Shown here piece after piece: positions 3,191 through 41,428 of a stretch of 64,000 nt of DNA. The notes beneath the pieces were generated by a model. It was not told the DNA's origin. It saw only the letters and a list, made by a program, of their open reading frames with translations, and ran no database searches. Each line of letters opens with the position of its first letter. Position 1 is the first letter of the stretch. Source of the stretch: Acidobacteriota bacterium. Its GTDB lineage: Bacteria > Acidobacteriota > UBA6911 > RPQK01 > JADFOI01. The position numbers and the translations under genes are program-made. The stretch spans positions 2,720,001-2,784,000 of the forward strand of contig OY760074.1 of NCBI GenBank assembly GCA_963663035.1. The letters run 5' to 3'.

Positions 3191-3420
3191 ATGCGGATCG
3201 GGTATGCCCGCGTCTCAAAGGCGGATGGTTCCCAGTCGCTGGACCTGCAGCGCGAAGCCCTGCGGGCCGAAGGCATCGACGACCCAGCCAACCTGTACCA
3301 TGACGTCGCGTCCGGCGGACGCGACGATCGGCCAGGACTCGACAGCTGCGTGCGCTGAGGAAGGCGATGTGCTCGTGGTCTGGAAACTCGGCCGTCTCGG
3401 CCGGCCACGCTCACTTGGCG
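3191..3420 (+). pseudogene. Truncated, frameshifted serine recombinase (resolvase/invertase)
   Basis: MRIGYARVSKADGSQSLDLQ...SGGRDDRPGLDSCVR stop, then EGDVLVVWKLGRLGR in another frame; C-terminal half missing. Confidence 0.85.
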
Positions 3421-4582: not shown

Positions 4583-4649
4583 GATGATTTCCGGCTCTTC
4601 TCTGGACGACGCTCGGGGACGAACGGCACGGAAGTTCGCTCTCGGCGGC

Positions 4650-4795
4650 GACCGGTGCCGGCAAAAAAAGCGGCGGCAACAAGGGCGGGACGCCAACCGG
4701 CGGCACCAGCAACGCCAGGAGGGCCGGCTCGATCACCGCGACCGGCAACGGGATTACCGGGAACGCTGCCGCCGCCGCGTGACGGATCATACTTC
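4650..4795 (+). pseudogene. Second fragment of the Cys/Arg-rich protein family
   Basis: RCRQKKRRQQGRDANRRHQQRQEGRLDHRDRQRDYRERCRRRVTDHTS aligns with 640..810 (-). Confidence 0.45.
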
Positions 4796-4922
4796 CGCCC
4801 GCCGCCCCCGATCCGTCAACATTAAGGAAACATGGACAAAAACGCGAAGAAGGCCGCCATTCGGGCCGTTTGCATCGTGTGTGGGCGCATGCGGCGGTGA
4901 TCGGCCCAGAGAGGGAGAAACG

Positions 4923-5120
4923 ATGTTTGGGAAAAAGAAAAAGGACAAGGCGAAGGATGAATTGGTTTCAGTCGAGACGGAGGAGGAATTTCACGCGGCG
5001 CTCAATCGGGGCGAAGACGTGGAACTCACGCATGAACTCGCTGAAAAGGTTGGCTTGATGGTTGAGGATGTGGGAACCCTCGAAGAAATCAAGGCCGCGA
5101 GATTCGATCCCTACAACTGA
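4923..5120 (+). CDS. Small acidic hypothetical protein, first gene of the conjugative module
   Basis: RBS gagggaga, ATG 4923, 65 aa, 20 bp before ardC. Confidence 0.6.
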   Translation: MFGKKKKDKAKDELVSVETEEEFHAALNRGEDVELTHELAEKVGLMVEDVGTLEEIKAARFDPYN

Positions 5121-5140
5121 GGCAACCGGAGGGAGACGAC

Positions 5141-6235
5141 ATGGCAAAACGGCCAGCGAAGCAAACCCACTATGAGCGGAGCGAGGCATACGCCAAGCAG
5201 GTGAGCGGTGAAATTATCGAGCAGATCAAAAAAGGCACAGCGCCCTGGATGAAGCCCTGGAAGCCGGGGGAACAAATCGGAGCGACGAATGTAGCAACCG
5301 GGAAAGCCTACACCGGAGGGAACAGCCTGTATCTCATGAGCCGTCAGATCAGCGAGGGCCGGGGAGACAACAGGTGGGGGACCTACCGGCAGATCGAGGC
5401 GGCGGGCGGGCAGGTGCGGCGGGGAGAGCAGGGAACGAAAGTCCTGTTCTACCAGAACCGGACGGAGCAACCGGCAAAAGACGAGACAGGGAAGATCCGC
5501 AAGGACAAGGAGGGCAAAACGATCTATGAGGAAACGGAGCGGTCGCAGGCGGTAATGCGTCAGTACACCGTTTTCAATGTGGAGCAGACCGATGGGTTGA
5601 AGTTGCCGCCCAGGGAAGCCGAGGCCACGCCGGAATGGGACACGCACCGGGAGGCTGACAAAGTGCTACGCGCCAGCGGGGCGAAGGTGCAGCACGTCCC
5701 CGGTGGAGACCGGGCTTACTACCGGATGGCCGAGGACAAGATCGTGCTACCGGACCCCTCGCAATTCGCTACGCGCAATGGCTACTACCAGACGGCGCTA
5801 CACGAGGCGGGCCATTCGACCGGCCATCATGACCGCATGAACCGCGACACCCTCAAAGAAGGCATGGCGGCGGGCTTTGGGAGCCCGGAGTATGCCCGCG
5901 AGGAATTGCGGGCGGAGATCAGCGCCATGATGACCGGAGAGCAGGTGGGCGTGGGACACGACCCGCAACGCGGCGCGGCCTACGTTGAGAATTGGGTGGC
6001 GGTGCTGGAAAAAGACCCGCATGAGATTCGCCGGGCGGCGGGTGAGGCGCAGAAGATGACGAATCACCTCATGGACCGGGCGATCGCCCAGGAGCGGGAG
6101 CACCCGACCAAGACCAAGGCCGAGCTTACGCAAGAGTTTTCCCACGCCAGGGGGCCGCAGATCGGCCAGACACCGAAGCAGCCGGTGGCGGCGCTCACGC
6201 AGACGCAAGAGCGCGATATGGGACCGAGCCGATAA
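5141..6235 (+). CDS. ardC: ArdC-family antirestriction ssDNA-binding protein (N-terminal ArdC domain + zincin-like domain)
   Basis: PWMKPW, YTGGN, WGTYRQ, VRRGEQG, YTVFNVEQ, LHEAGHSTGH (HExxH), YAREELRAE motifs. Confidence 0.9.
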   Translation: MAKRPAKQTHYERSEAYAKQVSGEIIEQIKKGTAPWMKPWKPGEQIGATNVATGKAYTGGNSLYLMSRQISEGRGDNRWGTYRQIEAAGGQVRRGEQGTKVLFYQNRTEQPAKDETGKIRKDKEGKTIYEETERSQAVMRQYTVFNVEQTDGLKLPPREAEATPEWDTHREADKVLRASGAKVQHVPGGDRAYYRMAEDKIVLPDPSQFATRNGYYQTALHEAGHSTGHHDRMNRDTLKEGMAAGFGSPEYAREELRAEISAMMTGEQVGVGHDPQRGAAYVENWVAVLEKDPHEIRRAAGEAQKMTNHLMDRAIAQEREHPTKTKAELTQEFSHARGPQIGQTPKQPVAALTQTQERDMGPSR

Positions 6236-6244
6236 GGAGACGCC

Positions 6245-7144
6245 GTGTTCGATCCGCGAGACATAAGCAGCGATCCCCGGAGGCGGACCCCGGAGAAGCC
6301 AAAGCGCGATCGCCTGAAAGAGCGCCAGGAGCGGAAACGCACCGGGAGCCGGGCCGAGTTCGATCCGCGATCCGACCGCGCGGATTTCACGGGCCGCACC
6401 GAGCGGGCCGTGGCAGAGATCGGCATGTATCGGACGGTAGCCTACAAGGATCTATCGGAGGCGCATTTCGAGGGACACCCCTACACCACACGCCGGGCGG
6501 TGGACCGGATGATTCAACAGGGCGACGTGCAGGAGCATACCGCCAAGGGGCCGCAGGGTGGCACCTACAAGGTGCTGACGCTCACCGTTAAGGGAGTCCA
6601 CCGGGCCGAAGTCGCGGCCCAGGACCAAGGGCTTGACAGCGGACAGAAGGCGTGGAGCGGCATGGTCAAATCGGCAGAGCTACAGCATGACACGGCAGTG
6701 TTCCGGGCGGCGCGGGTGGAGCAAGGCAAGCTGATCGAAAAGGGAGCCGTGTTGAAGCGGGTTCGCATCGACGCCGAGTTGAAACGCGAGGTTGCCAGGG
6801 CCTCAGAGACGGCCAGGGTGAAGGGCGGCAAGGAGGCGGCGGACGCGGCGCGGGTGGGAAAAGCGGCGGAGCTGGGCCTACCCGTCAAGGCCGGGAAGGT
6901 CGAATACCCGGACGCGCAACTTGAGTATGACCTCGATGGACGGAGCGGCAGGGTGAATGTGGAGATTGCCACCGAACACTACAGCACTAAGAGCATCGGA
7001 GCGAAGGCAGCGGCGGGCTTCGCCGTGCATGGAAGCAATGGCCGGGCGAAGGCGCGGGTGGCGCGGGCGCTTGGCCGGGACGATGGCAACAGCGGCGGTG
7101 GCGGCGGAGGCAAAGACCGCGATCCCGCCTCATTTGAACTCTAA
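6245..7144 (+). CDS. Hypothetical wHTH + PD-(D/E)xK-like protein, relaxase candidate (Replic_Relax-like)
   Basis: HTH-like segment (TTRRAVDRMIQQGDV...VLTLTVKG), LQHD, YPDAQLEY...VNVEIATEHY; lies between ardC and the virB genes. Confidence 0.55.
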   Translation: MFDPRDISSDPRRRTPEKPKRDRLKERQERKRTGSRAEFDPRSDRADFTGRTERAVAEIGMYRTVAYKDLSEAHFEGHPYTTRRAVDRMIQQGDVQEHTAKGPQGGTYKVLTLTVKGVHRAEVAAQDQGLDSGQKAWSGMVKSAELQHDTAVFRAARVEQGKLIEKGAVLKRVRIDAELKREVARASETARVKGGKEAADAARVGKAAELGLPVKAGKVEYPDAQLEYDLDGRSGRVNVEIATEHYSTKSIGAKAAAGFAVHGSNGRAKARVARALGRDDGNSGGGGGGKDRDPASFEL

Positions 7145-7153
7145 GGAGGACTC

Positions 7154-7477
7154 ATGCAGCCCTGGAAAATCAGCGTGGGACTGACGGCCATCATCTGCGC
7201 CGGGGGCTTGATGCTCGCCGGCGAGGGATTTTCCTGGCTTGCGCCCTACTTTTGGATGGTCCTCACCGATTTCTGGTTCCCCGTCTCATGGTACGCAGGG
7301 CTGGCCCTGGTCACGCTGATGTTTTCGATCTACTCCGGTGCGCGGCTCATGGGCCTTGCCGACATGGGCCGGAAAGTGGATCTGATGGAGCGGTCCATCC
7401 GGCGAGGCGAAGGAGGGCAAGCGGAGCTTGCCGAGAAGATGGAACAAGAGGAACGAGGGGAGTATCCGGGAGCCTAG
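7154..7477 (+). CDS. Small membrane protein
   Basis: RBS aaggagg; 2-3 hydrophobic segments and a charged C-terminus. Confidence 0.65.
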   Translation: MQPWKISVGLTAIICAGGLMLAGEGFSWLAPYFWMVLTDFWFPVSWYAGLALVTLMFSIYSGARLMGLADMGRKVDLMERSIRRGEGGQAELAEKMEQEERGEYPGA

Positions 7478-7517
7478 CCCCGGATCGAGTTTTCAAAACC
7501 GCAAAGGAGATTGAAAT

Positions 7518-7811
7518 ATGACTTTACCTTGCACCGGCGCTGCAAAGCGCGGAATCCTCATCGTGGCGCTGATCGTGGCGTCGTCTACGGAACTACTCGC
7601 CCAGGGTACAAGCCCCTGGCTCCAAGCCATCGACGTGTTGCAACAGGCGTTCACCGGCCCGATAGCGCGAGGGTTGAGTCTGATTGCCATCGTGGTAGGA
7701 GGCTTAATGTTTGCCTTTGGCGAGGGCGGCAGCAAGAAGGCGCTGGCCGGGATCGTCTTCGGGCTTGGCATGGCAATGGGAGCGGCCAACTTCCTAGCTT
7801 GGCTGTTCTGA
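7518..7811 (+). CDS. virB2: VirB2/TrbC-family pilin
   Basis: Signal peptide, SPWLQAI...FTGPIARGLSLIAIVVGGLMFAFGEG; position before virB3/virB4. Confidence 0.9.
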   Translation: MTLPCTGAAKRGILIVALIVASSTELLAQGTSPWLQAIDVLQQAFTGPIARGLSLIAIVVGGLMFAFGEGGSKKALAGIVFGLGMAMGAANFLAWLF

Positions 7812-8107
7812 TGGAGCGCGGCAAGGCGTGGCGCGGATACCCGGCGCTCAGTAAGCCGCTCACCATCATGGGAGTCGAGCGGCGGTGGTTCCTCTTGAGT
7901 GCCACCTTGGGACTCGCCATGTGGAACGCCATCAACTCCATTGTGACCGGCGGGTTGATCTTCGGGGTTTTGTACGCCGTGGGATTTTGGGCCTGGAAGC
8001 AAGACCCCAACATGCTTGAAATCTTGCGGGCGTCGGCCCAGTTTCGCGCCCGCTACGATCCGGGCAAGTGGGCGGCAGCGCCCTGGACCCTCTTGATTCG
8101 GAGATAG
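7811..8107 (+). CDS. virB3: VirB3/TrbD-family protein
   Basis: ALSKPLTIMGVER, two TM helices, KQDP motif; ATG overlaps the virB2 stop. Confidence 0.85.
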   Translation: MERGKAWRGYPALSKPLTIMGVERRWFLLSATLGLAMWNAINSIVTGGLIFGVLYAVGFWAWKQDPNMLEILRASAQFRARYDPGKWAAAPWTLLIRR

Positions 8108-8111
8108 CGGG

Positions 8112-10535
8112 ATGAATATAGATACCGAACTTCAAGATTACGAGGCGGCGGGATCGCTGGCCGAGGAATTGCCTTATTGGGGCTGGCTTGAAGATGAGCG
8201 GTCCTGTCTCACGCGGGCCGGGGAGTTGATGAGCTTGGCCCGCATTTCTCCTTTTGTCCTGGACGGCCAAACCCCAGAGCAGTTAGACCGGGTGGTTGAC
8301 CGCTGGCAACGGATGTTATCGGGCCTGGACGCCCGGACCCGGTTTTACTTCTATCTCTTGAGGCGTCCCGTTCGCTTCCCGGAAGTGCCGCCTAACGGCG
8401 CTTCCAAGGTGGTGACACTCGGCCAGCGAAAGCGCCGGGAATTTCTCACCAAGCGGGTGCAGGACGTGTCGGCTTATGTTGCATGGGCTTACGATCCGGG
8501 CCTATCCACCGTGGCATCCGAGAGGGCCGGGCCGTGGTGGATGGCGGGCGCGAAGAACTGGATGGCGCGGCGCAAGAACGCGCAGAGGTCCGTTTACCTC
8601 CATTCCTCGATAGAAGCGGCAAGCGCGGCGTTTCGGCAGACGGTCGATGCAAGCCGGGCTCTGGTGGATGATCTCACGCCCTTGCGCTTGCTCAAAGCCC
8701 ATGAAGCCTCAGAAGTTTTGAGCGAACTGACCAACCGGCCCGGAACGCCGTGGGACGGAGCGACCGGCAGCGGCATGAATTGGCGGCTGGCCGTCTCCGA
8801 ACTCGAAGCGGAGCGGCGCAACCTTCGCCTGGACGGGGAGCCCGTTGTGCTCTACTCGCTGCTCTCTCCCCCAGGCTCGGCCCGCAGCAATCTCTTGGCC
8901 GATCTTTACCGGCTCGATGCGACCTTGACGGTCACGCTCGAATGGCGTCCCCAGCGCCTCGATTCTGCCCGGCGAAAGATCCGGGGAGCGCAGCGCCATT
9001 ACTTCTCGAAGCGGTATTCGATGAGCGCCCACGTTCAAGAGACGGAGGGGAGCGCGGCGGCGATGGTGGACACGGCAGCAGCGGCGGAGAGTGACCGCTT
9101 AGGGGATGCTCTCGTGGAGCTTGAGACGGACGGTGTTGCTTACGGCGACCTTGCCCTTACGATTGCGATCCACGGCCCGTTAGAGCACTCCGAGAGCCTG
9201 GACGGGGATATTCGGCGCATCTTCGCCAGCCACGACGCCAAGGCGATCCGCGAGGGATACGGGCAGCTTCCCGCTTGGTTCTCAAGATTGCCAGGGCAAC
9301 CCCGGAGGCGGCAGGTCCGATCCGTGTTTGTATCGGCAGGTGTGACCGCTTGCATGGCCCCGATCTTCGGTCCACCTGTGGGAACTCCCCAGAGCGGTCA
9401 CTTACGCAAGGCAGCCCTGGCCATCCTTGAGACCGGGTGGCGGACCCCCTACCACTACGATCTATTTCAGGGCGACGTAGGACATACGCTGGTCCTTGGA
9501 GCCACCGGCGCGGGCAAAAGTTTCTTGCTCAATTTCCTGCTGGTGCAGGCCCTTCAATACGATCCCCGCGTCCTGATTCTCGATCTAGGGGGTTCTTACC
9601 GCTGGCTCACCCAATTTTTAGGCGGGGGATACATGGAGCTTTCACCGGCAGCGGCAGACGGCGAAGGGTTCCAGCTACGGCCTTTCTCTTTACCGGCAGG
9701 AGAGCGGACCTATCAATTTCTGACCGGCTGGATTTCCCGGCTGCTTCGCATCGGCGGATGGAACTTGAGCGGTTCCGATCCGAGCGAGATCCGCGCCCGC
9801 GTGGAAGACCTCTACGCTTTCGAGCCACCGGAGCGGACCCTTGGAACGCTGGTCCACTCTTTGCCCTCAAAGATGTGGCCCGCGCTTGGCCGCTGGCACG
9901 GTGACGGCGCATGGGGCAAATACTTCGATAACCCGGCAGACGGCGAAGACCTGCAATTTCAGGACTGGCAGGTGATCGACATGGCGGGCGCGGCGGAGCA
10001 TGACGACTTATGCGAGGCGGCGCTGTTCTACCTTTTGGAGCGGTTGCGGCTGGCCCTGGAAAATCCGGACGAGACCGCCCGCGTCAAGCTCATGGTGGTC
10101 GATGAAGCGTGGCGCTACCTTCAAGATCCCGCCGTCCTTTCCTATCTCGCAGAAGCCGCCAAGACATGGCGCAAGAAGAACGCGGCGCTGATCGTGGCGA
10201 CTCAAAGCGCCGTAGACGTAACGGGAACGGCGGGCGCGGAAGTCTTGCTTGAATCCATGCCGACCAAGCTATTCCTTGCCAACCCGGACCTGCCTGAGAA
10301 GGCCGCAGAAACCTTCCGGTTGAACCCCTCGGAAATGAACATCATTCGAGGCTTGATCCCCAAGCGGGAGCTTTACTTGAGGCGCACCGACGCGGCAGGG
10401 ATCTTACGCCTTGAAGTCGATCCGGCCAGCTATTGGCTTTACACATCTTCGCCGGTTGACGCGGCCAAACGGGCCGCAGCCGTCGAAGAACACGGCCTGG
10501 AACAGGCCCTTGAACACCTATCGAAACGGAGGTAA
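8112..10535 (+). CDS. virB4: VirB4/TrbE T4SS ATPase
   Basis: Walker A GHTLVLGATGAGKS, ILDLGGSY, Walker B VVDEAW, WRKKNA, ATQS. Confidence 0.95.
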   Translation: MNIDTELQDYEAAGSLAEELPYWGWLEDERSCLTRAGELMSLARISPFVLDGQTPEQLDRVVDRWQRMLSGLDARTRFYFYLLRRPVRFPEVPPNGASKVVTLGQRKRREFLTKRVQDVSAYVAWAYDPGLSTVASERAGPWWMAGAKNWMARRKNAQRSVYLHSSIEAASAAFRQTVDASRALVDDLTPLRLLKAHEASEVLSELTNRPGTPWDGATGSGMNWRLAVSELEAERRNLRLDGEPVVLYSLLSPPGSARSNLLADLYRLDATLTVTLEWRPQRLDSARRKIRGAQRHYFSKRYSMSAHVQETEGSAAAMVDTAAAAESDRLGDALVELETDGVAYGDLALTIAIHGPLEHSESLDGDIRRIFASHDAKAIREGYGQLPAWFSRLPGQPRRRQVRSVFVSAGVTACMAPIFGPPVGTPQSGHLRKAALAILETGWRTPYHYDLFQGDVGHTLVLGATGAGKSFLLNFLLVQALQYDPRVLILDLGGSYRWLTQFLGGGYMELSPAAADGEGFQLRPFSLPAGERTYQFLTGWISRLLRIGGWNLSGSDPSEIRARVEDLYAFEPPERTLGTLVHSLPSKMWPALGRWHGDGAWGKYFDNPADGEDLQFQDWQVIDMAGAAEHDDLCEAALFYLLERLRLALENPDETARVKLMVVDEAWRYLQDPAVLSYLAEAAKTWRKKNAALIVATQSAVDVTGTAGAEVLLESMPTKLFLANPDLPEKAAETFRLNPSEMNIIRGLIPKRELYLRRTDAAGILRLEVDPASYWLYTSSPVDAAKRAAAVEEHGLEQALEHLSKRR

Positions 10536-10539
10536 TTCG

Positions 10540-11382
10540 ATGTTGAAATTCATTCCACTTTTGGTTACGGCGGTCCTGGCCTTGCCGGGGCCGCTGCTGG
10601 CTCAGGACGCCGGAGCGGTGTTGCGGATCATCGAGGCCCAGGATCAGATTGTGAGGATTCAGGCCAAGACGAGGCACACCACTGTAATCGTGCTGCCCGC
10701 GTCCGAGGACATTCTTGATTTCGTGGTGGGGGATTCCGAGTATTGGCACCTGACCGGCGCGGCCAATCTCGCTTTCCTGAAACCGATTGCGGAAGGGGTC
10801 ACAACGAACGTGGCGCTGGTCTGTGAATCCGGGCGCATCTATTCGTTCCTGGTGACGGAGGAAAGCGCCGGGGAGCCGCATCTAATCGTCCGGGTGGAGC
10901 ACCCGCAGATTGACGATCCCCGCATCTCGCCGGGTGTCAACACCCCGGCCTTTGTCCGGCGATCCCAGGTCACGGCCTATCAGGAAATGGCGGAAACCGC
11001 CATGAAGACCGTCGCCACGGTGCAGGAGGAAGCCGAGGCCCGCGTTGCCGAGGCGAAGGCCCAGGCCCAGGGTGAGACAGAGGCTTTCCGGTCGGACTAT
11101 CCCACCCGGTTGAACTTCCCTTACCGCTTGGAGGACAAGGCGATCAAATGGCCGTTTCTGGTCGAGGGAATGTGGAATGACGGGCAGTTTACCTATCTTC
11201 GCTCGAACGCCCAGGAGACGCCCGCACTGTACGAAGAAAAGGACGGGAAACCGGCCTTGGTTGCCTACGATCTTGAAGAAGACGGCCTGTATATCGCCCG
11301 TCATGTTTTAGGCAACGGCTGGTTGCAGATCGGCAAAGAAAAAGCCAAGTGGCGCTTCACCGCGCCGAAGGTGGCACCGTGA
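10540..11382 (+). CDS. virB9: VirB9/TrbG core complex protein
   Basis: Signal peptide, GDSEYW, FLKP, TNV, WNDGQFTY, PALY motifs. Confidence 0.9.
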   Translation: MLKFIPLLVTAVLALPGPLLAQDAGAVLRIIEAQDQIVRIQAKTRHTTVIVLPASEDILDFVVGDSEYWHLTGAANLAFLKPIAEGVTTNVALVCESGRIYSFLVTEESAGEPHLIVRVEHPQIDDPRISPGVNTPAFVRRSQVTAYQEMAETAMKTVATVQEEAEARVAEAKAQAQGETEAFRSDYPTRLNFPYRLEDKAIKWPFLVEGMWNDGQFTYLRSNAQETPALYEEKDGKPALVAYDLEEDGLYIARHVLGNGWLQIGKEKAKWRFTAPKVAP

Positions 11383-12782
11383 GTAGTGGATGGAAACGCC
11401 TGTACCCCAAGCCAGCCGGGAGCTTGCCGGGCGGCATTGTCACTCAATGGGGGGTGGCGCTTATTACTGTTCTAATCCTGATCTTTGTCGCGCTGTGGCT
11501 GGCAAGCGGAGGCACGGAGCAAGCGGAGATCGACTCCATAGGGGGAGAAGTCACCGGCCCGGCGCGGAACTTCGCCGGGCAGATGGCCGCGCAGGTCGAA
11601 GCCGAGGCGCTACGGGCCGAGACGCGCCGGGCGGCGGCGGATCGGACCCTACAGGCGCAGCAGCGCCAGGAGGCGCAGGAAGTCGCAACGGGCGCGATCG
11701 GAGGCGGGCAGGTGACGATGGACGAGGCGATGCTACTGGCCGGGCCGAGTCCTGAAACCGGCAGAGCATACACACAGCAGGAATTTGAACTCCGGGAACG
11801 GTTGCGCCTGGAAGCCTTGGAGCGGCGGAGCCGGTCGCTTCGCAGTTCGCCGGTGGCTCAGACCTACCGGCAATTCGCCCGCGCCAGATCACCGGCGGAG
11901 GCGGGCGCGGAGCCCGGCCCGGTCGAAGCGATCCGCGCCGAGGGAGCGGCGGCGCTTTCTCAGGCCCTTGGGACGTTCCAGGGTGTGACGGGCAGCCTGG
12001 AAGATGAAATAGGGGCGGAGGCGGACGCGGATCGGGCTTTCCTTGCGGCCCTCACCGGAGCGCAGCGGGGCGGTGGACCGGACCCGGCCCAGGCCGTTCC
12101 TCCTGGACCGGCAGCGCCCGCAGCGCCCGCGCCTAATTCGCTAGGCTTTCCCGGTGCGGCGGCGCAACCGTCCCGCGACTATGCCAACCCTTCGCGGCTT
12201 GAGGGCGGCGACGATCCGCCAGGGTGGGAACGGATCTATGAGGGAGCGTTCCTTGAGGCCGTGCTTGTCACCCAACTATCCGGTGACTTTCCCGGCCCGG
12301 TCCTGGCCCAGGTTGCCGTGCCGTTTTACTCCGCTGACCGCCAGCGGGTTTTAGTCCCGCGTGGAGCGCGGGCGATCGGAACCGCGTCGGCAGTTCTAGG
12401 CCAAGACCAAGAGCGCCTGGCCGTGTCTTTCCATCGGTTGATCTACCCGGACGGGCGATGGGTGACACTGGACTTTCACGGCCTCAACCAAGTGGGAGAA
12501 GGCGCGTTGAAAGATCGGGTGAACCGCCACTATTTCTCGATGTTTGCCGCTGTCGGAGCGGTTGGCATCATTAGCGGCCTCACCTTGCAGAACTCGAACC
12601 CTTACGGCGGCGGCGCTCAAGCGTTCCGGGCCGGAGCCGGGCAAGGGCTCGGCCAAGCGGCGGAGCAAATCTTGCAGCGTTTCTTGAACCGTTTACCCAC
12701 CCTCACCATCCGGGCCGGGCATCGGCTCCGTATCTGGTTTACGTCCGATGTACTGGTCCCCCGAAACCTGAAAGGAGAATGA
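11379..12782 (+). CDS. virB10: VirB10/TrbI core complex protein
   Basis: N-terminal TM; EAVLVTQLSGDFPGPVLAQV, RLIYPDG, VNRHY, PTLTIRAG; GTGA overlap with virB9. Confidence 0.9.
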   Translation: MSSGWKRLYPKPAGSLPGGIVTQWGVALITVLILIFVALWLASGGTEQAEIDSIGGEVTGPARNFAGQMAAQVEAEALRAETRRAAADRTLQAQQRQEAQEVATGAIGGGQVTMDEAMLLAGPSPETGRAYTQQEFELRERLRLEALERRSRSLRSSPVAQTYRQFARARSPAEAGAEPGPVEAIRAEGAAALSQALGTFQGVTGSLEDEIGAEADADRAFLAALTGAQRGGGPDPAQAVPPGPAAPAAPAPNSLGFPGAAAQPSRDYANPSRLEGGDDPPGWERIYEGAFLEAVLVTQLSGDFPGPVLAQVAVPFYSADRQRVLVPRGARAIGTASAVLGQDQERLAVSFHRLIYPDGRWVTLDFHGLNQVGEGALKDRVNRHYFSMFAAVGAVGIISGLTLQNSNPYGGGAQAFRAGAGQGLGQAAEQILQRFLNRLPTLTIRAGHRLRIWFTSDVLVPRNLKGE

Positions 12783-13699
12783 AAATGAAACACCGAATCG
12801 TGAGCGGCCTTGTCTTGGTTCCCCTCATGATCGTACTGAGCACCACGCCCGCCTACGCCATCTTTGGCTCGATCTTGGCGGCGATCCAGCGGGCGCAGAT
12901 GATCGTCAATCAGGGGGTCCAAATCTACAACGATGCAATGGAGAAGATCACGATGAACGGGCAGCTAACGGAACTGACCGATCAATTCTCGCACCTAAAA
13001 GAGCAAGCCCTTGGCACGGTCGGGGCGCTTTCGCAACCCTTCACCGATCTTAGCTCGGTCCCGACTGAATTTATCGGCGCGGGCCTTTCCTGGAAGAACG
13101 ACTTTACCGGCGTGGCCGGGGAGTTGGCCGGGGCGGTGGAGCAGCTAGGAGAATCGGGGACCAGTTTCAGCGACGCATGGAGGGACCGCTTGACGGCCAG
13201 TAACACCATATCGGAGAGCGATTTTCTGAGCCTCTACGCGGGCCAGAGCCCGGAGGTAGGAGCGGCGGCGTCACGGGTCTACCTAGCGGCAGCAGAGGCC
13301 GGGGATAAGAAGCTCGTCATGGCTCACGCCCAAAGTGACGCGGCCAAGAATCTGATGGTGGCCGCGAAGGAAGCGGTTTCGTCCTATGAAGGATTGCGAA
13401 ACAACACGAACACGAGCAACACCGCGCTACAGCAAGCGATGGTTGCCGGGACCGTGACCCAGGGCAACCTTACCGCTGCTATGGCGCAGTTGATGGTTTA
13501 TCAGGCGTCCAAGGAGAGCGCGAAAGAGTACGAACAGGAGATAGCACGGCGCGAAGAACTGGCCCGTTTCGTGGAGGCCGAGCGCCAAGCTCAGATTACG
13601 TTTGACGCGCAGCAAGCAGGGATTGCGGCCCGCGTAGATTCGATGCGCGAGGGGTTGCTTTTCAGAGTCCCGGCGCTCTACGGCGGACCCGGCCAGTAG
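12779..13699 (+). CDS. VirB5/TrbJ-like pilus-associated protein
   Basis: Signal peptide ending TPAYA, long helical Gln/Ala-rich body, directly before virB6. Confidence 0.6.
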   Translation: MKMKHRIVSGLVLVPLMIVLSTTPAYAIFGSILAAIQRAQMIVNQGVQIYNDAMEKITMNGQLTELTDQFSHLKEQALGTVGALSQPFTDLSSVPTEFIGAGLSWKNDFTGVAGELAGAVEQLGESGTSFSDAWRDRLTASNTISESDFLSLYAGQSPEVGAAASRVYLAAAEAGDKKLVMAHAQSDAAKNLMVAAKEAVSSYEGLRNNTNTSNTALQQAMVAGTVTQGNLTAAMAQLMVYQASKESAKEYEQEIARREELARFVEAERQAQITFDAQQAGIAARVDSMREGLLFRVPALYGGPGQ

Positions 13700-13708
13700 G
13701 CCGCGCCG

Positions 13709-14710
13709 ATGCAGATTCAGATTGACCCGAATATCCCCGCCAATCTCCCCCCGGAGGAAATAAGGGATTTCCAATCCTTCATTCAGACCGCCCTTGACGG
13801 CCTTACGGCAGCGGCGGGCGGTGAGGTGATGACCCTTGGGACGGGCATGTTTGCCGGGCTTGCGTTGATTGTCATCGTAATCGCCGGAGTCAAGATCGCG
13901 TTTAGCGGGAATATCCAACCGTGGGAAGTGGTGCGGCTTGTCATTGGGATATGGATTCCGTGGGTGATGATGCAGTTCTACACGACCACGATTCCCGGCA
14001 TGTCCCAAACCTTTCCGGGGATGATTGCCGAGGGCGGGAACTTTCTACACGAAATGTTGCTAGGCGACATCATTAGCTCGATGCAAACCGAACTCGGAGA
14101 CATGGTGAGGGCCATAGCCGCGAACATGCAAACGCAAGCGGCCCAGGGGAACGTGATCGGGATTTTAACGGGCGGCGTCCACGCCTTCATTACCGCCGTG
14201 GCCGGGAGCATCATCATGGCGCTTTTAGTTCTCATGCTCATCGTCTTATTCGCTGTCACCTACGCTCAGGTGATCTGGGCTCAAATCGCGCTTGCGATCC
14301 TCATCATTCTAGGGCCGATCTTTATCCCGTTTCTCGTGTTCGAGCCGATGGCCTTTCTCTTTTGGGGCTGGTTCAAAGGGATGCTTACCTATTCGCTCTA
14401 TGCCGTGATCGCCGGGTGTGTGTTGCGGGTGTTCAGCGCCGTGGGAATTGCGTATATCACGACGCTGGGCGGCGCGAACCTGGACACCCAATCTATGACT
14501 CAAGTGGGCCTATGGACGCTGGCCGTCATTCCCCTTTTCATTGCCGGGCTTCTCTCATCGCTCAAATGCGGCGAGCTGGCTTCGATGCTCGTCACCGGAG
14601 GCGGAGCGGGAGGAAGCGGACTCATGGGTATGGCGACAACGGCAGGGATGGCAGCGGCCAGCGGCGGAGCGGCAGCGGCCAAGACAGCAGCATCAGGAGG
14701 GATCAAGTGA
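13709..14710 (+). CDS. virB6: VirB6/TrbL inner-membrane protein
   Basis: Polytopic; ILGPIFIPFLVF...FWGW motif; Gly/Ala-rich tail. Confidence 0.9.
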   Translation: MQIQIDPNIPANLPPEEIRDFQSFIQTALDGLTAAAGGEVMTLGTGMFAGLALIVIVIAGVKIAFSGNIQPWEVVRLVIGIWIPWVMMQFYTTTIPGMSQTFPGMIAEGGNFLHEMLLGDIISSMQTELGDMVRAIAANMQTQAAQGNVIGILTGGVHAFITAVAGSIIMALLVLMLIVLFAVTYAQVIWAQIALAILIILGPIFIPFLVFEPMAFLFWGWFKGMLTYSLYAVIAGCVLRVFSAVGIAYITTLGGANLDTQSMTQVGLWTLAVIPLFIAGLLSSLKCGELASMLVTGGGAGGSGLMGMATTAGMAAASGGAAAAKTAASGGIK

Positions 14711-15387
14711 GCCAAGATAAGACGCCACCGGCGAAAGACGCGGGCGCGGAGTACGCCGAAATATGGGGCGAGGCGATCCACTCCAACCGTCACCTTCGGA
14801 CGATCACGGTGGGGCTTGGCATTGCGGTAATTTTGTTGATTATCGTGGTCATCCGCATTGCCTCAGTCGATCCCCCCCGGCCCATCGTGGTGAGGGTGGA
14901 TGAAATAGGCCGGGCCGAAGCCGTCGCCTATGACGTGATGGAGGCCCAGGCCGACCCGCTGGACCCGACGACCAAATACTTTCTCAATCGTTTCGTCTAT
15001 GACTTCTATTCCCGTCGCCGGGCGACGGTCGAAGAAAACTGGTCCCGCAGTCTCCGGTTTCTCACGACCGATCTAGCCAACGCATCCTTCCGGGCCGAGA
15101 GCCAGAATATCGCCCTCCTAGCGGCGGGCGCGGCCCGCGATGAGTTGCAGGTGGATCGTGTCGTTTTGAGGATTCAGGCCAACCCCCAGGAGCCCCACAG
15201 CGCGACGGCCGATTTTGACCTCGTGCGCCTTGTCGCCGAGGGCGAAGTGGACCGGGAGCGGTGGAGCTTATCGCTTCAATTCCTGTTCCTCGATGAGATC
15301 CCCCCCGATCTGATTGTTCACAATCCTATGGGTATCGTTATCACCTACCTGCAAGGAGATCGGGCGGTGGTGACGGGCGACCGATGA
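14707..15387 (+). CDS. virB8: VirB8/TrbF protein
   Basis: Single TM, PIVVRVDEIG, C-terminal NPMGIVIT; GTG start overlaps the virB6 stop. Confidence 0.9.
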   Translation: MSQDKTPPAKDAGAEYAEIWGEAIHSNRHLRTITVGLGIAVILLIIVVIRIASVDPPRPIVVRVDEIGRAEAVAYDVMEAQADPLDPTTKYFLNRFVYDFYSRRRATVEENWSRSLRFLTTDLANASFRAESQNIALLAAGAARDELQVDRVVLRIQANPQEPHSATADFDLVRLVAEGEVDRERWSLSLQFLFLDEIPPDLIVHNPMGIVITYLQGDRAVVTGDR

Positions 15388-16320
15388 TCGAGCATTTGAG
15401 GGGCCGGGAACAGGCGCTTGCATCTCTAGGATGGACCGGGCGGGAGGCGGAATGGATTGCCCTGGTCTGTCTCCACAGCGGCGTTTTCACCCGGCCTCAG
15501 TTTTGTCATTACTTCGATGCAGACAGCAAGCGGGCGCACCGTTTTGTCAAGGCATTAATTGGAGCGCGGGCAGCGGGTCGAGAGCGAGTGGCCGGTTGTC
15601 AACGGAGGCGGGAAGTCATGCCGGATATCGAGCAAGCCGATCTACCGGGCGCTGGGAATTGAGAACATCCGCCACCGGAGGAAAACTACCGTTTCCGTTC
15701 TCAGGCGGCGGCTTCTCTCGCTTGATTTTGTCCTGGAACATCCGGGCATGAACTGGCTTCCGACCGAGGGGGAAAAGGTCGAATTTATTGAAGGGCTAGG
15801 TGTCCATTCCAACCTCATTCCCCGGCGGATTTACTACGGCGCGGTTCGCGCTCAGAAACGCTATTTTGCGCTCAAGCTGCCCGTTGCCGGTGGCGATAAA
15901 ACCGTCACCTTCGCTTATGTCGATCCGGGCCATGCGACCGCCGTGGAATTCAACTCATGGGGAGCGGCGCATGGACCGCTTTGGGATGCGATCCGCGCCA
16001 AGGGGCGGCGGGTGGAGGTAATCGCCATCGGCGCGGAACTGGATACGGTTTTGCGGGCGGATCGAGTGCTACAGCTTTGGGCGGCGGCGGAGCCGGGGAA
16101 GGTGATCGAGGGGTTGACGGTGAAGCAGGAGATTAGCGCGATTAGGGAGGCGCTTCGACAAGCGCGACCTGGAATTTATGAGCCAGTACGGAGGGATGAA
16201 TCGAGGCCGGCGGAACGGTACAAGGAACTCCTGAAACTTCCCGAAGCGGAGCTTGCGGAAGGGGTCTCGATTGACGACTATTCGACGTACCGGGCCACCC
16301 GGTTTTCGGAGCCGGTTTGA
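15384..16320 (+). CDS. Uncharacterised HTH-like protein (possible replication/relaxation initiator), split by frameshift near 15557
   Basis: 15384..15662 and 15559..16320 join at KALI/ERG; motifs LHSGVF, RHRR, SLDFVL, LPTEGEK, FAYVDPG; probably another local frame slip near 16155-16210. Confidence 0.55.
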
Positions 16321-16677
16321 GGGGCCAAATCCGGGGTGTTTTTCATGCCGCTGGGGGCCGCATGCTTTTTGCCACAGGGACAAAGGGGGGGGTGCGGCAT
16401 AAAAAGCGTGGGGGTGGAACATCCCCACATTCCTTGAACTCTTTTGTTTTCCGTGGTTTGCCCCTACTATTCGGCTTCCATAATGACGATACAGAAAAAT
16501 CCGGGAAGACGATAGCGACCCCCCCCGAAAAGGGGGGTTCCTACCGGCCCCGATAGCGGCGCGATGTGGCACGCCCCTACACCGGCCCCAGGGGGTCGCT
16601 ATCGTCGGTATTTATCCCTGCGGGAAGGCTCGGAAAAGACGCCCCGGAGCGGCGTGGATTAAGCGGAGAATGGCCCT
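16321..16677. other. Structured intergenic region, oriT/oriV candidate (copy 1)
   Basis: 16-bp inverted repeat gacgatagcgaccccc 16508..16523 / 16591..16606; hairpin 16408..16428; conserved in copy 2. Confidence 0.45.
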
Positions 16678-18988
16678 ATGGAATTGCGGAAGAACTGGCG
16701 GAAACTGACCACGGCCTTGAGCCGGTTTTGGCACCGGGAGGCCGGGCCGATGAACTGGAAAAACCCCGTCCGCGTGACGGCCTATATCGGCTGGGAAATT
16801 TTCAACGGCGTGGCTTTTTTGGTGGGTGAATGGGTCCGGTACGGCGTCCGGGCCGGGCAGATTTTCCTGGCAATTCCCCCCACCGCGATTCTCTTTTTCG
16901 GGGGGGGTTTGGTTCGCCGTTTGGAGCTTTGTACGGCGTCCTTTTCCGGCGCTTGAGACGGTCCCATTGCTCGATCTTTTGGAGTATCACAACCCGAATT
17001 TTTACAGTGCCGTTGTGGTTTGGTACTACCTTTCGCCGCTGGTGGCGGTGATGCTGGCCGGGTCTATTGCCCTGTCCGTTTGGAAGGTTTGGATTGAGGC
17101 GCGAAAGCGCGATTTAATTCCCTTCGGGGCGCTTCCCGCTTGGCCGCTTTCGCCGGAGCAGCCCGGCCCGGAAATCGTCATCGGGGAAGTGCATCATCCG
17201 GTCGAACCCAAGGAGATTTTCAACCCCGAATGGCTCACCATCCCGGAGCGCGGACTGTACACCGGCATTGCCATTTTCGGAGCGGTGGGGAGCGGTAAAA
17301 CTTCGGCTTGCATGCACCCCTTCGCCAAGCAGCTACTCGGCTGGCAAGCGGACGATCCAGAGAAGCGGGCGGCGGCGCTCATGCTCGAAGTGAAGGGGGA
17401 TTTTTGCCATGACATTCGCTCGATCCTGGACGGCGCGGGCCGGGGAGACGACTACCTGGAGATCGGAATGGGGGGCCTCTGGAAATGGAATCCCCTCTCC
17501 GCGTGGTGGCTCGATTCGTACTCGCTGGCCTACACCGTTGCCAGCCTTGCTGAATCAACTTTTCGGCAAGGGCAAGGAGCCCTTTTGGCAGCAAGCCTAT
17601 ACCAATCTGGTGCGCTGGATTATCGAGCTTCACCGGGTGCTACCGGAGCAGTGGGTGACATTGCAGCAGGTCTATCAATGCGCGATTGACCCGGATCTAT
17701 TCGCGGCCAAAATCAAACAGGCCGAGGCGTGGAGCGCAGAGCTAAACACCGGGGAGGTTTTCATTCCGGTCGAGACGTGGACGAAGCGGGCGGTGGAGGT
17801 TGGAGAGTGGCTATGGACGGGCGGCGGGGAAAACGGGAAGGAAATGCGGGCCGAATGGAGCCCGGAATTGGAGCATAAGCTAAAGGAATTGAGGGATCAA
17901 GCCTCGTATCGTTTGGGAGCCCGGAGCCGGTGACGATGTGAGAGAGCGGGTGGCCGCTGTGAAGCGGTGGTTTGACAACGACTGGCAAAAGCTGGACAAC
18001 AAAATCAAATCCTCGATTGTCGAAGGGGTTTCCGTATTCCTGTCGATGTTCGATATGCCGGACGTGGCGGCGGTGTTCTGTCCCCCGCCCCCGGAAGTGT
18101 CCGACGATCCCCGGCGCATTGGCCCGAAGGCCAGGGCCGCGATGCTGGCCAGAGGCAAAGGCCCAGGCCAAGGGCCAAGGGGAGGACAGCGCCGAGAAGA
18201 AGGCCCAGGAGTCCCGGCAATGGCCCGGCGATACCATTGCCGGAAGGCCGCGCCATTTACCCCCGCTCTATGAATTGATCGAGGGCGGCAAGGTGCTGGC
18301 CTTGAATATGCCAGCCGGGAGCAACCCGGCGCTGGCCCGCGCCATCGGCGTGATGCTCAAAAACGCATGGCTCCAAGCCTTGCTCATGCGGCCCGCGCAG
18401 ATGAAGGAATCCCCAAGCACTTACTTCCGGCCCGCTGTCTTTATTTGCGACGAGTACCAATCCTTCGCGTCGGTGGGCGAGGACGATCCCACCGGCGATG
18501 AGAAATCCTTTGCCTTAACGCGGCAATGCCGGTGCATCCCGATTGTTGCGACCCAATCCATATCCTCATTGCGGGCCGTGCTGGGCAGTTCGGAGGCGTG
18601 GCGGGCGCTGCTACAGACACTTCGCACCCGGATCTTTCTATCCTTGAGCGACGACGCCAGCGCCAAGATCGCATCGGAATTGTGCGGGCAGGTTGCCAAG
18701 ATCAAAGGATCGTACACGATCAGCGAGACCTCGAAGCGGGCGGGCGTGTCCCCGCTATCGGGCCGGGCCGGTGGAGGCGGCGGGAGCATCGGCGCAACCA
18801 AGTCTTTCCAGGAGCGCCGGGAGGCCGTCTTTCACCCGCGAGACTTCACCTTGCTTGGAAACTGTCAAGCCATTTGCTTGCCCTATGACGGAGCGCAATC
18901 GCTGGAACCCCGGAGGGTCTATCTCAAACCTCATTACCTTCCCCTGGATCATTCTTATTGGAGAGCGAAGGAGGCCGGACAGATATGA
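16678..18988 (+). pseudogene. virD4: VirD4-like type IV coupling protein, copy 1, with several apparent frameshifts
   Basis: Fragments 16678, 16826, 17409, 17938 and 17972 reconstitute the intact copy at 36209..38500; indels near 16900, 17550, 17891, 18150. Confidence 0.85.
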
Positions 18989-19934
18989 GCAACGCGGCCA
19001 GCGGGCTTGCACACCTGAAACCTTTTTTGCCAGGGCTTGAACCCCTGCTAGAAGACGCGGAAGTGTCCGAGATCATGATTAACGGCCCCGGCAATGTTTG
19101 GATCGAGGCGAGGGGCCGGTTAACGGCTCATGCAGCGCCAGGGTTGGACGAATCGGCCTTGTTACGGGCGGCTATTCACATCGCCCGTCCTTTGGGCCTG
19201 GACCCGGCCACCACGCCCATCATCGACGCCCGGCTCGATGATGGTTCCCGCGTGGCGATCTGTGTTCCCCCGGCCAGTCCCCACGTTGCGATCACCATCC
19301 GGCGATTCGGCAAGCGGACGTTTAGCGCGGCGGATCTAGTCGAGCAGAAAGCCCTACCGGAAAACGTCTTGAAAGCGGCAGAGCAGGTGTTGATGACGCG
19401 GCGCAACATTCTGGTTTCCGGTGGGACCGGATCAGGCAAGACCACCTTGCTCAATGCCCTCATAGAACTGCTACCCGTTGACGAGCGCATTGTGGCAATC
19501 GAGGACACGCTAGAGCTTCGCATTGACCACTCGAATTGTGTCCGGTTTGAGGCCGAGGGTTGCAGGAAGGCGCGGTGACGATCCGCGATCTAGTGCGCCA
19601 TGCCTTGAGGCATCGACCGGATCATATCGTGGTGGGAGAGGTTCGAGGCGGTGAGGCGGCGGACCTGCTGCAAGCCCTCAACACTGGACACGGCGGGTCA
19701 CTCACGACCGTACACGCCAACAACGCGGAGAGCGCCCTATCGAGAATCGCCAGTTGCGCCATGCAGGGCGGCGGGGAGTTGCCGTGGGAGGTCACTTGCC
19801 GAGGCGTGGTGGATGGGATTGCGATGGTCATTCACATGACGCGCCGCGAGGGGCGGCGTTTCGTGGAAGAAGCCGCATACGTCAAAGGTTACGAAGCGAA
19901 GGAGAACCAATGGGAAATCGAACGGCTGGAATGA
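18985..19934 (+). pseudogene. virB11: VirB11/TrbB traffic ATPase, copy 1, frameshift near 19553
   Basis: EIMING, GGTGSGKTT, EDTLEL, LRHRPDHIVVGEVRG, NTGH; one base shorter than copy 2. Confidence 0.85.
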
Positions 19935-20435
19935 ATATCGCTAGCAAACTGAAATCCAAACGATCCGCCAAGATCGGGGTTTTGATCCTGATGGGCGGGA
20001 TGCTTGCGCTCATCACGGAAGCGCAATTTGAGCCGATTGAGGCAACGGTGGTTCGTGGGATTGACGGAGATACCATCCGGGTCCGGGTGCGAGGCAAGGA
20101 CGCACACCGTCCGTCTCATCGGCGTGGACACCCCGGAGACGGTACACCCGACCAAGACCGTGCAGCACTTTGGAGCGGAGGCCAGCGCCTACACCAAGGC
20201 CGCGCTCGAAGGTAAGACGGTGACGCTCGAAGCGGACCCGACCGGAGACACCGTGGACCGCTATGGGCGCTTGCTTCGCTACGTCTACCTGGACGGCCAG
20301 AACTTCAACGCCCGGTTGATCCGCGAGGGATACGGTCACGCCATCAGGAGATTCCGATATTCCTTGAAGGCTCAATTTATCCGGCTTGAGGACTCGGCCC
20401 GGAAAGCGGGCCGGGGGTTGTGGTCCCCGCGATGA
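19931..20435 (+). pseudogene. Thermonuclease (SNase-like), copy 1, frameshift near 20100
   Basis: IDGDTI, VRLIGVDTPE, DRYGRLLRYV, ARKAGRGLW in two frames; N-terminal TM/signal. Confidence 0.85.
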
Positions 20436-20671
20436 GGCCCGGACTCGATCAACGCGCCCTCGACGGCGGGGGACCGGCTGCGGGGCCAGATCCGACCGCA
20501 AGCGTCAGGCTGCGGGCCTTCTCTCTACGATCCACGGACCGCCGACAAGACGGCGGAGCCGTGGGCGGGGCTTGGATTCCCCCATCGTGCCGTGCGGCCC
20601 CCGGAGCATGGGTGTGTCGCCATGTGCCGCTGCCGGTCGCCGGTATCGGTTTGGCCCGGCGCAGGGATCGC

Positions 20672-20713
20672 GCCAGACCGGGGCAAGCCCCTTGCCTGTG
20701 GCATCTGTCACGC
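20672..20713 (+). repeat. Conserved leader motif, copy 1
   Basis: gccagaccggggcaagccccttgcctgtggcatctgtcacgc; also at 21421, 22255 (partial) and 40188. Confidence 0.9.
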
Positions 20714-20842
20714 CCCATGCCTGTTGCCGGTCCTGCCCGTCACCGGCGACGGCGGCGCTTTCCTCCGTGTCAGGTGTCGCCGGTATCGCCATTCACAGGT
20801 GAGCGATAACCGCTCGAACCTTAACTTAGGAGGAAACACAAA

Positions 20843-21103
20843 ATGGCTAACCACAAACCCATTGATGAAGTCCGAATTGGCCGCGTCAAAGCCACGATTT
20901 GGAAGAACGGAACCGAGGACGCCCCGCGTTACAACGTCACCTTTTCCCGTCTCTACAAAGACGGCGATCAGTGGAAGACCACGCAGAGCTTCGGGCGGAA
21001 CGATCTTCTGACGCTTGCAAAAGTGGCGGATCTCGCTCATACCCGCATCTACTCGCTCCCCCAGGAGCAGCCCGACGAGGCCGGGGAGGTTGATGAGTCC
21101 TAG
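20843..21103 (+). CDS. PC4-like small ssDNA-binding protein, copy 1
   Basis: RIGRVKATIWKN...YNVTFSRLYKDGDQWKTTQSFGRNDL; RBS aggagg. Confidence 0.7.
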   Translation: MANHKPIDEVRIGRVKATIWKNGTEDAPRYNVTFSRLYKDGDQWKTTQSFGRNDLLTLAKVADLAHTRIYSLPQEQPDEAGEVDES

Positions 21104-22349: not shown

Positions 22350-22628
22350 ATGGCAGGGAAGCGGTTTAGGGCAGAACAGATCATCATGAAGCTGCGTGAG
22401 GCAGAGGTGGGTCTGGCCCAAGGACAGAGGGTGGGACAGGTGTCGAAGCAGATGGGGGTGAGCGAGCAGACCTACTACCGGTGGCGCAAAGAGTACGGAG
22501 GGCTCCGGTTGGACCAGGCCAAGAGGTTGAAGGTGTTGGAGAAGGAGAATACCCGGTTGAAGAAGCTGGTGGCGGATCTGTCTTTGGACAAGCAGATCCT
22601 GAAGGAAGTGTCCTCGGGAAACTTCTAG
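22350..22628 (+). CDS. IS3-family transposase OrfA
   Basis: [41 protein letters not shown]; slippery gggaaac near 22616. Confidence 0.9.
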
Positions 22629-29108: not shown

Positions 29109-29110
29109 TG

Positions 29111-35749: not shown

Positions 35750-35850
35750 GGACCGGAGCTCCAAAGCCTCCCGAAGCGGAGCTTGTGAAAGGGGTCTCGA
35801 TTGACGGCTATTCGACGTTCCGGGCAACGCGGTTTTCGGAGCCGGTTTGA

Positions 35851-40187: not shown

Positions 40188-40229
40188 GCCAGACCGGGGC
40201 AAGCCCCTTGCCTTTGGCATCTGTCACGC
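40188..40229 (+). repeat. Conserved leader motif, copy 4
   Basis: One mismatch to 20672..20713. Confidence 0.9.

Positions 40230-41062: not shown

Positions 41063-41428
<366 letters not shown>

Follow-up and report, generated by a model that had tools for sequence, protein, structure and literature searches.

The 64,000-nucleotide (nt) stretch of Acidobacteriota DNA analyzed here (the window) covers bases 2,720,001–2,784,000 of a single 3,594,683-base contig, a genome that is 96.6% complete by marker genes. Between positions 4923 and 21103 it carries an operon for a type IV secretion system (T4SS), which is best explained as the DNA-transfer module of a family of integrated mobile elements that is common in Acidobacteriota from soil. 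Two genes inside this operon, called candidates A (6245–7144) and B (15384–16320) here, had been proposed as its relaxase or initiator. Our preferred reading, to which we give a probability of roughly 60%, is that A nicks DNA in the manner of the MOBC relaxases at an origin of transfer (oriT) in a structured spacer, that B is its partner, that transfer proceeds through a divergent T4SS resembling mating-pair formation type T (MPF-T), and that ArdC escorts the DNA.

In the proposed mechanism, the MarR-like winged helix of A would bind the transfer origin, and a single strand would be nicked, in the manner of MOBC relaxases, by its C-terminal PD-(D/E)XK-like domain (H148, D223, E240, and K254; Y246 is close by). 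The nicked strand would pass to the coupling protein and from there to the T4SS. ArdC would protect the transferred strand in the recipient, and B, encoded next to the structured spacer, would assist as a DNA-binding partner. The DNA-processing genes inside the operon would replace a separate MOB gene. The gene content, the synteny, the breaks in reading frames, the absence of HUH relaxases, the winged helix of A, the profile link between A and PF13814, and the covariation in the spacer are directly supported. We infer the nicking by A, the role of B, and the identity of the oriT.

Candidate A and the search for a relaxase

The first-pass annotation, made from the sequence alone, had seen no HUH relaxase in the operon. 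This was borne out. Six Pfam models, taken to cover MOBQ, MOBP, MOBF, MOBH, MOBV, and MOBT (PF03389, PF03432, PF08751, PF07514, PF01076, and PF02486), were run over the whole genome and none had a single match, the MOBB- and TcpM-type profiles not being among the models searched. The Replic_Relax model PF13814 also gave 0 matches in the whole 3,594,683-base genome. We compared six homologous loci from five genomes, with 60 kb around each. The six models were empty in their flanks as well, and no relaxase was found among 97 flanking open reading frames (ORFs) and three large ones. The flanking ORFs are cargo and include surface proteins with fn3 or cadherin domains, a sulfatase, restriction–modification genes, insertion sequence (IS) elements, and host genes. 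Because no relaxase lies in the flanks of the six loci, no canonical MOB gene is consistently linked to this operon.

Candidate A is a protein of 299 residues whose N-terminus is a MarR-type winged helix. Its C-terminal half has the order α-β-(inserted long α)-β-β-α-β-α, which is compatible with a PD-(D/E)XK core. The family is large and nameless: at least 1160 of the 7999 candidates scored belong to it at E≤0.001, all of them unnamed, and an exhaustive profile search gave 1097 representatives at 50% identity. We examined 48 diverse members, which are 24–56% identical to the A of the window. PF13814 was matched by eight of them at E≤0.1, and two scored above the gathering threshold of 25.3 bits (26.1 and 25.5). 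The other recurring matches were PadR/MarR winged helices. The pAD1-type plasmid pTEF1, classed as MOBC by MOB-suite, offers a yardstick: its “replication-relaxation family protein” scores only 28.5 bits against PF13814.

A profile of the A family was then aligned by hhalign to 17 genuine PF13814 proteins from Acidobacteriota (E values of 5e-10 to 9e-24; 30 of 401 genomes matched the model, 22 of them above its cut-off). The alignment was significant (Prob 92.1, E 6.4e-7) over 77 columns covering the winged helix. In a full-length alignment with relaxed settings, H148, P222-D223, E240, and K254 of A fall on the conserved H, PD, E, and K of PF13814. These residues are invariant across the 48 sequences, and Y246 lies nearby.

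The accessible part of PMC3424549 places PF13814 within the PD-(D/E)XK superfamily, and that of PMC5357655 has CONJscan take PF13814 proteins as MOBC. MOBC relaxases are described as restriction-endonuclease-like in the accessible part of PMC12857230. There, TraX is reported to have an N-terminal winged helix and to bind repeats 70–120 bp from nic, and the same part states that no covalent intermediate was observed.

The likeness to the MOBC relaxases (TraX of pAD1, MobC of CloDF13) extends beyond the profile. Like A, they measure approximately 260–330 residues, have an N-terminal MarR-like winged helix, and lack an HUH motif. The H…PD…E…K series of A is collinear with the PF13814 consensus in the relaxed alignment, and A is likewise encoded within or beside T4SS and coupling protein genes. 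There are also differences. The A of the window falls below every Pfam threshold. Its lysine does not occupy the E-x-K position (E240-I-A), and the invariant K254 is on the next helix instead. The core carries an inserted helix of approximately 35 residues (176–209). The gene follows ArdC at the head of an MPF-T-like diderm operon rather than lying beside the coupling protein. CloDF13 itself was set aside as a comparison, its mobC region being unannotated and apparently fragmented in the record.

Several observations weigh against A as the nickase. The A of the window has no match in Pfam or NCBIfam even at E≤10, PF13814 included. The significant stretch of the hhalign comparison is the winged helix alone, and the nuclease part aligns only under relaxed settings. 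In the structure searches, the 50 VIA rows listed were without exception proteins of the winged-helix type, as were the Foldseek matches listed. The TraX-like protein of pTEF1 is missed by a hidden Markov model (HMM) of the A family, and hhalign of A against that single sequence is not significant. The gene is approximately 9 kb away from the proposed oriT. Replic_Relax is also called a predicted transcription regulator in the accessible part of PMC3424549. Besides these points, the HMMs of A and B, run against all ORFs of the genome together with pTEF1 and CloDF13, found only themselves, and a sequence search of the Protein Data Bank (PDB) with the A profile gave nothing significant (best E 0.29).

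A could also be a mere winged-helix regulator, or a nuclease unrelated to transfer, in a T4SS that uses a relaxase in trans or that is non-conjugative and serves protein delivery or DNA release. The regulator label of Replic_Relax, the remoteness of the MOBC link, and the existence of coupling protein–VirB11 modules without A all fit this. We consider it rather unlikely, since an H, PD, E, and K that stay invariant in 48 sequences at 24–56% identity speak for catalysis, and ArdC, the integrase, and the multi-copy spread of the elements (see below) indicate DNA transfer. In addition, the Pfam models searched detect no other relaxase in the genome. A distant relative of A is encoded directly upstream of VirB4–VirB9, so the linkage of A to T4SS genes is old.

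We regard A, on sequence grounds, as a distant relative of the known non-HUH MOBC relaxases and as a likely DNA-nicking enzyme. Of the earlier proposal, that an undescribed conjugation class uses a non-HUH nickase, the nickase inside the operon stands as the best reading. The undescribed class does not, since A connects to Replic_Relax/PF13814 through the eight matches among 48 members, the hhalign probability of 92%, and the collinear motifs. The element is a variant of a known relaxase kind and no new conjugation class.

Genes of the T4SS operon

The features of the region are as follows, all on the forward (+) strand.

4923–5120, +: small acidic ORF, the C-terminal part of ORF 4428–5120; first conserved gene of the module
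5141–6235, +: ArdC, a single-stranded DNA (ssDNA)-binding anti-restriction protein with a metallopeptidase domain (ArdcN PF08401, 3.1e-31; MPTase-PolyVal PF18818, 9.3e-38)
6245–7144, +: candidate A, winged helix plus PD-(D/E)XK-like domain, a MOBC/Replic_Relax-like relaxase candidate
7154–7477, +: small membrane protein, kept by synteny in all full loci; no family above cut-off
7518–7811, +: VirB2/TrbC pilin (PF04956, 3e-15)
7800–8107, +: VirB3, start approximate (PF05101, 2.7e-7, residues 112–181 of ORF 7511–8107)
8112–10535, +: VirB4 ATPase (TIGR00929, 5.9e-78; P-loop_TraG, 6.1e-14)
10411–11382, +: VirB9/CagX (PF03524, 3.4e-27)
11349–12782, +: VirB10/TrbI (PF03743, 2.2e-40)
12779–13699, +: conserved protein at the “virB5” position, in 38 of 48 loci at a coverage of ≥0.87
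13709–14710, +: VirB6/TrbL (PF04610, 1.3e-16)
14362–15387, +: VirB8 (PF04335, 3e-14); the domain is residues 127–333 of the ORF, and the true start is further in
15384–16320, +: candidate B, frameshifted here; 310–314 residues when intact
16346–16440, +: 8-mer array, phased element-specific 8-mers in the spacer between B and the coupling protein
16508–16606, +: Y-shaped folded element with a 16-bp outer stem, a C/G hairpin, and a long hairpin
16607–16632, +: near-invariant tail TATTTATCCCTGCGGGAAGGCTCGG, directly after the outer stem (spacer alignment)
16678–18988, +: coupling protein (VirD4/TraG-like), a pseudogene in this copy (TraG-D_C, 1.6e-8 on the last piece)
18958–19934, +: VirB11 ATPase with a frameshift in this copy (two ORFs match T2SSE, at 4.7e-21 and 9.8e-23)
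20004–20435, +: thermonuclease (SNase; PF00565, 3.6e-26)
20843–21103, +: small conserved protein (“SSB-like” label unverified), kept in the related loci G001, G003, and G002c
35755–40584, +: second partial module with the last ~28 codons of B, the structured spacer, the coupling protein, VirB11, and SNase

The scans with Pfam and NCBIfam confirmed the co-oriented run that the first-pass annotation had described, with ArdC, VirB2, 3, 4, 9, 10, 6, and 8, the coupling protein, VirB11, and the thermonuclease. Two of its labels fared less well. The genes called virB5 (12779–13699) and single-stranded DNA-binding (SSB)-like (20843–21103) are indeed conserved, but neither has a family in Pfam, NCBIfam, or PHROGs. 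ORF 4428–5120 has no match in these three collections either, and its conservation in relatives is limited to the C-terminal part, approximately residues 142–230. PHROGs, searched with 12 proteins, gave 0 families. VirB1, VirB5, and VirB7 were not detected in the operon by the Pfam and NCBIfam scans. The true start of VirB9 is probably near 10540, as judged from distant relatives, which align from residue 44.

VirB4, the coupling protein, and VirB2, 3, 6, 8, 9, 10, and 11 occur together in one locus, the gene content by which an MPF-T system is recognized. All of these are recognizable counterparts of components of the Agrobacterium VirB and IncP Trb systems. The operon differs from those in its order, B2-B3-B4-B9-B10-x-B6-B8 with all genes on the + strand, and in having DNA-processing genes and a structured spacer inside it. 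None of the T4SS proteins comes near its NCBIfam equivalog cut-off; VirB4, for one, reaches 262.9 bits where 643 are required. Judged by its sequences, the system is a divergent MPF-T-like T4SS. An acidobacterial T4SS was already placed at the base of MPF-T in a 2012 survey (PMC3548315, accessible part).

Candidate B and the structured spacer

Candidate B had been listed as one gene at 15384–16320. This span is 937 nt long and is not an ORF; it holds two frames, 15384–15662 and 15559–16320. Relative to four close relatives, there is one extra base near 15561. Across relatives, B is a single intact ORF of 310–314 residues in 31 loci, runs off the end in four, is broken in three, and is a fragment in one. 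Its relatives number more than 3425, all of them lacking both a name and a Pfam domain, and 26 intact members matched no family. Nothing significant was found in a profile search of the solved structures in the PDB (best E 0.2). By hhalign, B is not significantly similar to A or to the single pTEF1 sequence; against Replic_Relax the comparison gave E 0.033 and Prob 1.5, and in this poor alignment the PD and E positions are non-acidic in B.

The position of B is constant. VirB8 is reached in 39 of the 48 loci, and B follows it in 38 of these and lies just beyond the locus in the 39th, where there is an insertion; the other nine loci are truncated. The order VirB8–B–coupling protein is also kept in a subfamily at only 44–45% identity. 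The constant position of B between VirB8 and the coupling protein makes it a core part of the system. Of the two relaxase candidates proposed earlier, A is supported by its profile, and B is broken in the window and gives a structure model with a predicted local distance difference test (pLDDT) score of 44.9. This model is unusable, which also counts against the reading we prefer. B is most likely an accessory DNA-binding partner.

A different assignment would make B the nickase, a relaxase of an undescribed family encoded beside its oriT and coupling protein as in pAD1-type TraX, with A as a regulator or accessory protein. The strict linkage of B to the spacer and the coupling protein, also in the distant subfamily, would fit this, as would the MOBC gene of pTEF1, which adjoins a coupling protein. 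Invariant polar residues are numerous in B, among them D114, E118, H119, E128, E130, K131, and Y160, and a stretch of α-β-β-β-α-β is predicted at low confidence. We nevertheless think this assignment very unlikely, given that B matches no family and no solved structure, shows no significant hhalign similarity to A or Replic_Relax, and has a model at pLDDT 44.9.

The spacer between B and the coupling protein (16321–16677) contains a perfect 16-nt inverted repeat (16508–16523 and 16591–16606). It forms the outer stem of a Y-shaped fold, with a C/G hairpin and a long hairpin, and the same fold is found in 27 of 30 aligned sequences. The Y structure was supplied by hand from single-sequence folds, RNAalifold on the alignment having missed the outer stem. 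Covariation supports the fold. In the alignment, 86.6% of the cells are paired, compared with 42–54% in slid controls; compensatory changes occur in 18 of 40 pairs, and 0 of 500 shuffles reach the observed values. A near-invariant tail, ATCCCTGCGGGAAGGCTCGG, lies directly 3′ of the Y structure. Folded as ssDNA, the element of the window has −29.3 kcal mol−1 (z −2.4) on the + strand and −34.2 kcal mol−1 (z −4.2) on the − strand.

Upstream of the fold is an element-specific 8-mer in up to four phased copies, spaced 23–24 nt apart, two of them inverted and two direct. The center of the array has a conserved A(A/G)AG-G7. In most of the 30 loci the 8-mer occurs two to four times, one mismatch being allowed, compared with ~0.1 times in shuffled sequences; in the window there are only two copies. 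This arrangement, with repeats lying some way from an inverted repeat, is similar to that reported for the TraX origin in the accessible part of PMC12857230. A pairing of the variable 8-mer with particular residues of B was considered and dropped, since one 8-mer can be found alongside several B motifs, one B motif alongside several 8-mers, and the comparison is confounded by linkage.

We regard the structured spacer as the best candidate for the oriT. Nearly as good is the reading of the Y element as an RNA leader, a 5′ untranslated region or intra-operon regulator of the expression of the coupling protein and VirB11, and we give it a serious chance, somewhat short of even. The G–U pairs lie on the + (sense) strand, which fits an RNA leader equally and so detracts from the oriT assignment. 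In two coupling protein–VirB11–integrase modules that lack B, the foot of the outer stem is the very point from which homology begins, immediately after an unrelated AT-rich stretch with TATAAT-like words; this, too, fits an RNA leader as readily as an oriT. The Y structure always lies approximately 70 nt upstream of the coupling protein start, as a leader might, and contigs from RNA libraries cover the region, a weak indication since DNA may be present. On the other side, no Rfam family was matched (0 matches over the whole window), and a sigma-70 scan of 15300–17000, which includes the spacer, found no promoter. The combination of an inverted repeat and, after it, a near-invariant single-stranded tail is typical of oriTs. 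The modules consisting of coupling protein and integrase need an oriT, and the Y element is their only conserved non-coding piece. Terminator-like elements in 15300–17000 are at chance level (4 versus 2.5±1.8).

The RNA libraries are metatranscriptome runs X17 and X18 of one study, whose contigs lie over all or nearly all of the 30 bins of 15300–20000. This hints that members of the element family are transcribed in the environment, with DNA carry-over possible.

Copies, element family, and neighboring genes

The T4SS had been described as complete-looking. This description does not hold for the copy at 4923–21103. Compared with an intact paralogue, the coupling protein is in at least five reading-frame pieces (16678–18985) and VirB11 is in two (18958–19572 and 19554–19931). 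With B, three genes are frameshifted, and the module in this window is thus degraded. The intact paralogue had been overlooked. Approximately 19 kb downstream, 16224–21066 is repeated at 35755–40584 with 94.2% identity over 4854 columns. In this second partial copy, the coupling protein (36209–38500, 763 residues) and VirB11 (38470–39447, 325 residues) are both intact, and SNase is at 39541–39948. Relative to it, the first copy has +1 at 16908, +1 at 17549, +3 at 17833, +1 at 17891, and +13 at 18152 in the coupling protein, and −1 at 19554 in VirB11.

The two copies differ by 263 substitutions, which are enriched at third codon positions. By codon position they number 30/19/62 in the coupling protein, with 46 synonymous and 35 non-synonymous changed codons, and 6/3/19 in VirB11. 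This enrichment indicates that the two copies diverged as working genes, so the breaks are recent or are partly assembly artefacts. Every one of the frameshifts, whether in B, the coupling protein, or VirB11, could even be an assembly or polishing error of a long-read metagenome-assembled genome (MAG), with the operon actually intact. We find this doubtful, if still a real chance. The host records of the loci are single-contig or few-contig MAGs, a duplication at 94% identity can confuse polishing, and scattered frame breaks are also seen in other MAG loci. B has one extra base only, in a GG context, and any inactivation must be recent, the copy differences being mostly at third positions. Against this, five of the six frame-breaking indels are outside long homopolymers (three of four in the coupling protein and the single ones of VirB11 and B), one indel is a 13-nt insertion, and the second copy is clean in the same assembly. 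Public sequencing runs each contain at most 0.64 of the sampled words, and their contigs, which are short pieces of relatives, give no verdict on the frameshifts. Some of these short contigs are without the extra bases at 16900, 17549/50, or 17891, or have an added base at 19553/4. For this copy to transfer, the second module would have to supply its intact coupling protein and VirB11 in trans, and either B would have to be unnecessary or its frame break would have to be an artefact of assembly.

A 945-residue Eco57I/PglX-like methyltransferase (32912–35749) ends six bases before the duplicated segment, which starts at 35755. The deletion by which the second module lost its T4SS therefore has a breakpoint within B. 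A gene pair for a 180-residue protein and ParA (41115–42298) follows the second module, and the chromosome has another copy of it at C1:1417159–1418339, the two proteins being 94% and 100% identical. Between the two modules, the island is interrupted by transposases of the IS3 family, the IS256/Mutator family, and the IS4/5 type (22350–23500, 30238–31482, and 42777–43754).

A scan of species-representative genomes gave 48 related loci, all from Acidobacteriota MAGs (Terriglobia, Bryobacterales, and Acidiferrales). No match to the region was found in 72,556 plasmids by tblastn with candidate A and the proteins P0209 and P0258. The conserved core runs from the small ORF upstream of ArdC through VirB11, with SNase, a small gene of the 20843 type, and a membrane protein as optional genes after it. 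Three copies in one genome share 92–94% nt identity only over a stretch of ~14.9 kb, which starts approximately 230 bp ahead of ArdC and stops where VirB11 ends. In the copies of the G002/G005 clade, a tyrosine integrase directly follows VirB11. The genome of the window has no homologue of this integrase (best 23% identity, elsewhere in the genome), and the window itself has only a resolvase N-terminal fragment (2990–3358), a RepA_C fragment, and ParA.

Copy numbers are high. Coupling protein and VirB4 matches number 6/20/3/43/10 and 3/7/3/10/4, respectively, in five related genomes; the single MAGs G002 and G004 thus have 20 and 43 coupling protein matches and 7 and 10 VirB4 matches. Conjugative elements commonly exclude each other, and a multi-copy state is unusual for them. 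At least three units in G002 (the region of loci L121–L125) consist of the Y structure, the coupling protein, VirB11, and the integrase, and have no mating-pore genes. Some truncated modules keep a remnant of B, its last 34 or 141 residues; such remnants occur in the window and in L123 and L125. The window's second copy is built in this way too; of B it keeps the final 28 codons, and it has no integrase. Going by their sequences, the truncated modules look like truncation derivatives of the full element, and they may be mobilizable hitchers. In lacking mating-pore genes they resemble integrative and mobilizable elements with their own coupling protein (streptococcal class 8, with MOBC and VirD4; MobB and MobC of CloDF13), from which they differ in having VirB11 and in lacking candidate A.

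A bolder arrangement would be a two-protein non-HUH relaxosome, in which a remote MOBC-like A and a B of an undescribed family act on a composite origin made of the 8-mer array and the Y fold, with the truncated modules as hitchers mobilized by way of the fold, or in which B itself is the new relaxase. We hold this to be unlikely.

Several other genes of the window were noted. A Thoeris ThsB-like TIR protein (28611–29114, − strand; PF08937, 4.3e-26) adjoins the RepA_C fragment (27587–28228) and an IS6/IS240 transposase (26967–27689). A dual-specificity phosphatase-like domain is fused to an ADP-ribosylglycohydrolase at 45644–47125 (PF03747, 2e-73) and is followed by an HTH_31 protein (47319–47672). 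A DUF4143 ATPase (52162–53409) precedes a BREX system (53416–64000) with BrxA, BrxB, BrxC, a PglX-like methyltransferase (58341–61922), and PglZ, which starts at 61922 and is cut by the end of the window.

The element family is very common, as the 1097 A representatives, the more than 3425 B relatives, and the up to 43 coupling protein matches per MAG show, and its proteins are nameless in the databases searched. As the relaxase candidate falls below the Pfam thresholds, annotation at these thresholds would flag no relaxase in the elements. The MOBC-like A, B, and the structured spacer are testable parts for the study of gene flow in soil bacteria. If our reading is true, the MOBC class, which has been little studied, would also include an MPF-T-like system of a diderm phylum other than the Proteobacteria.

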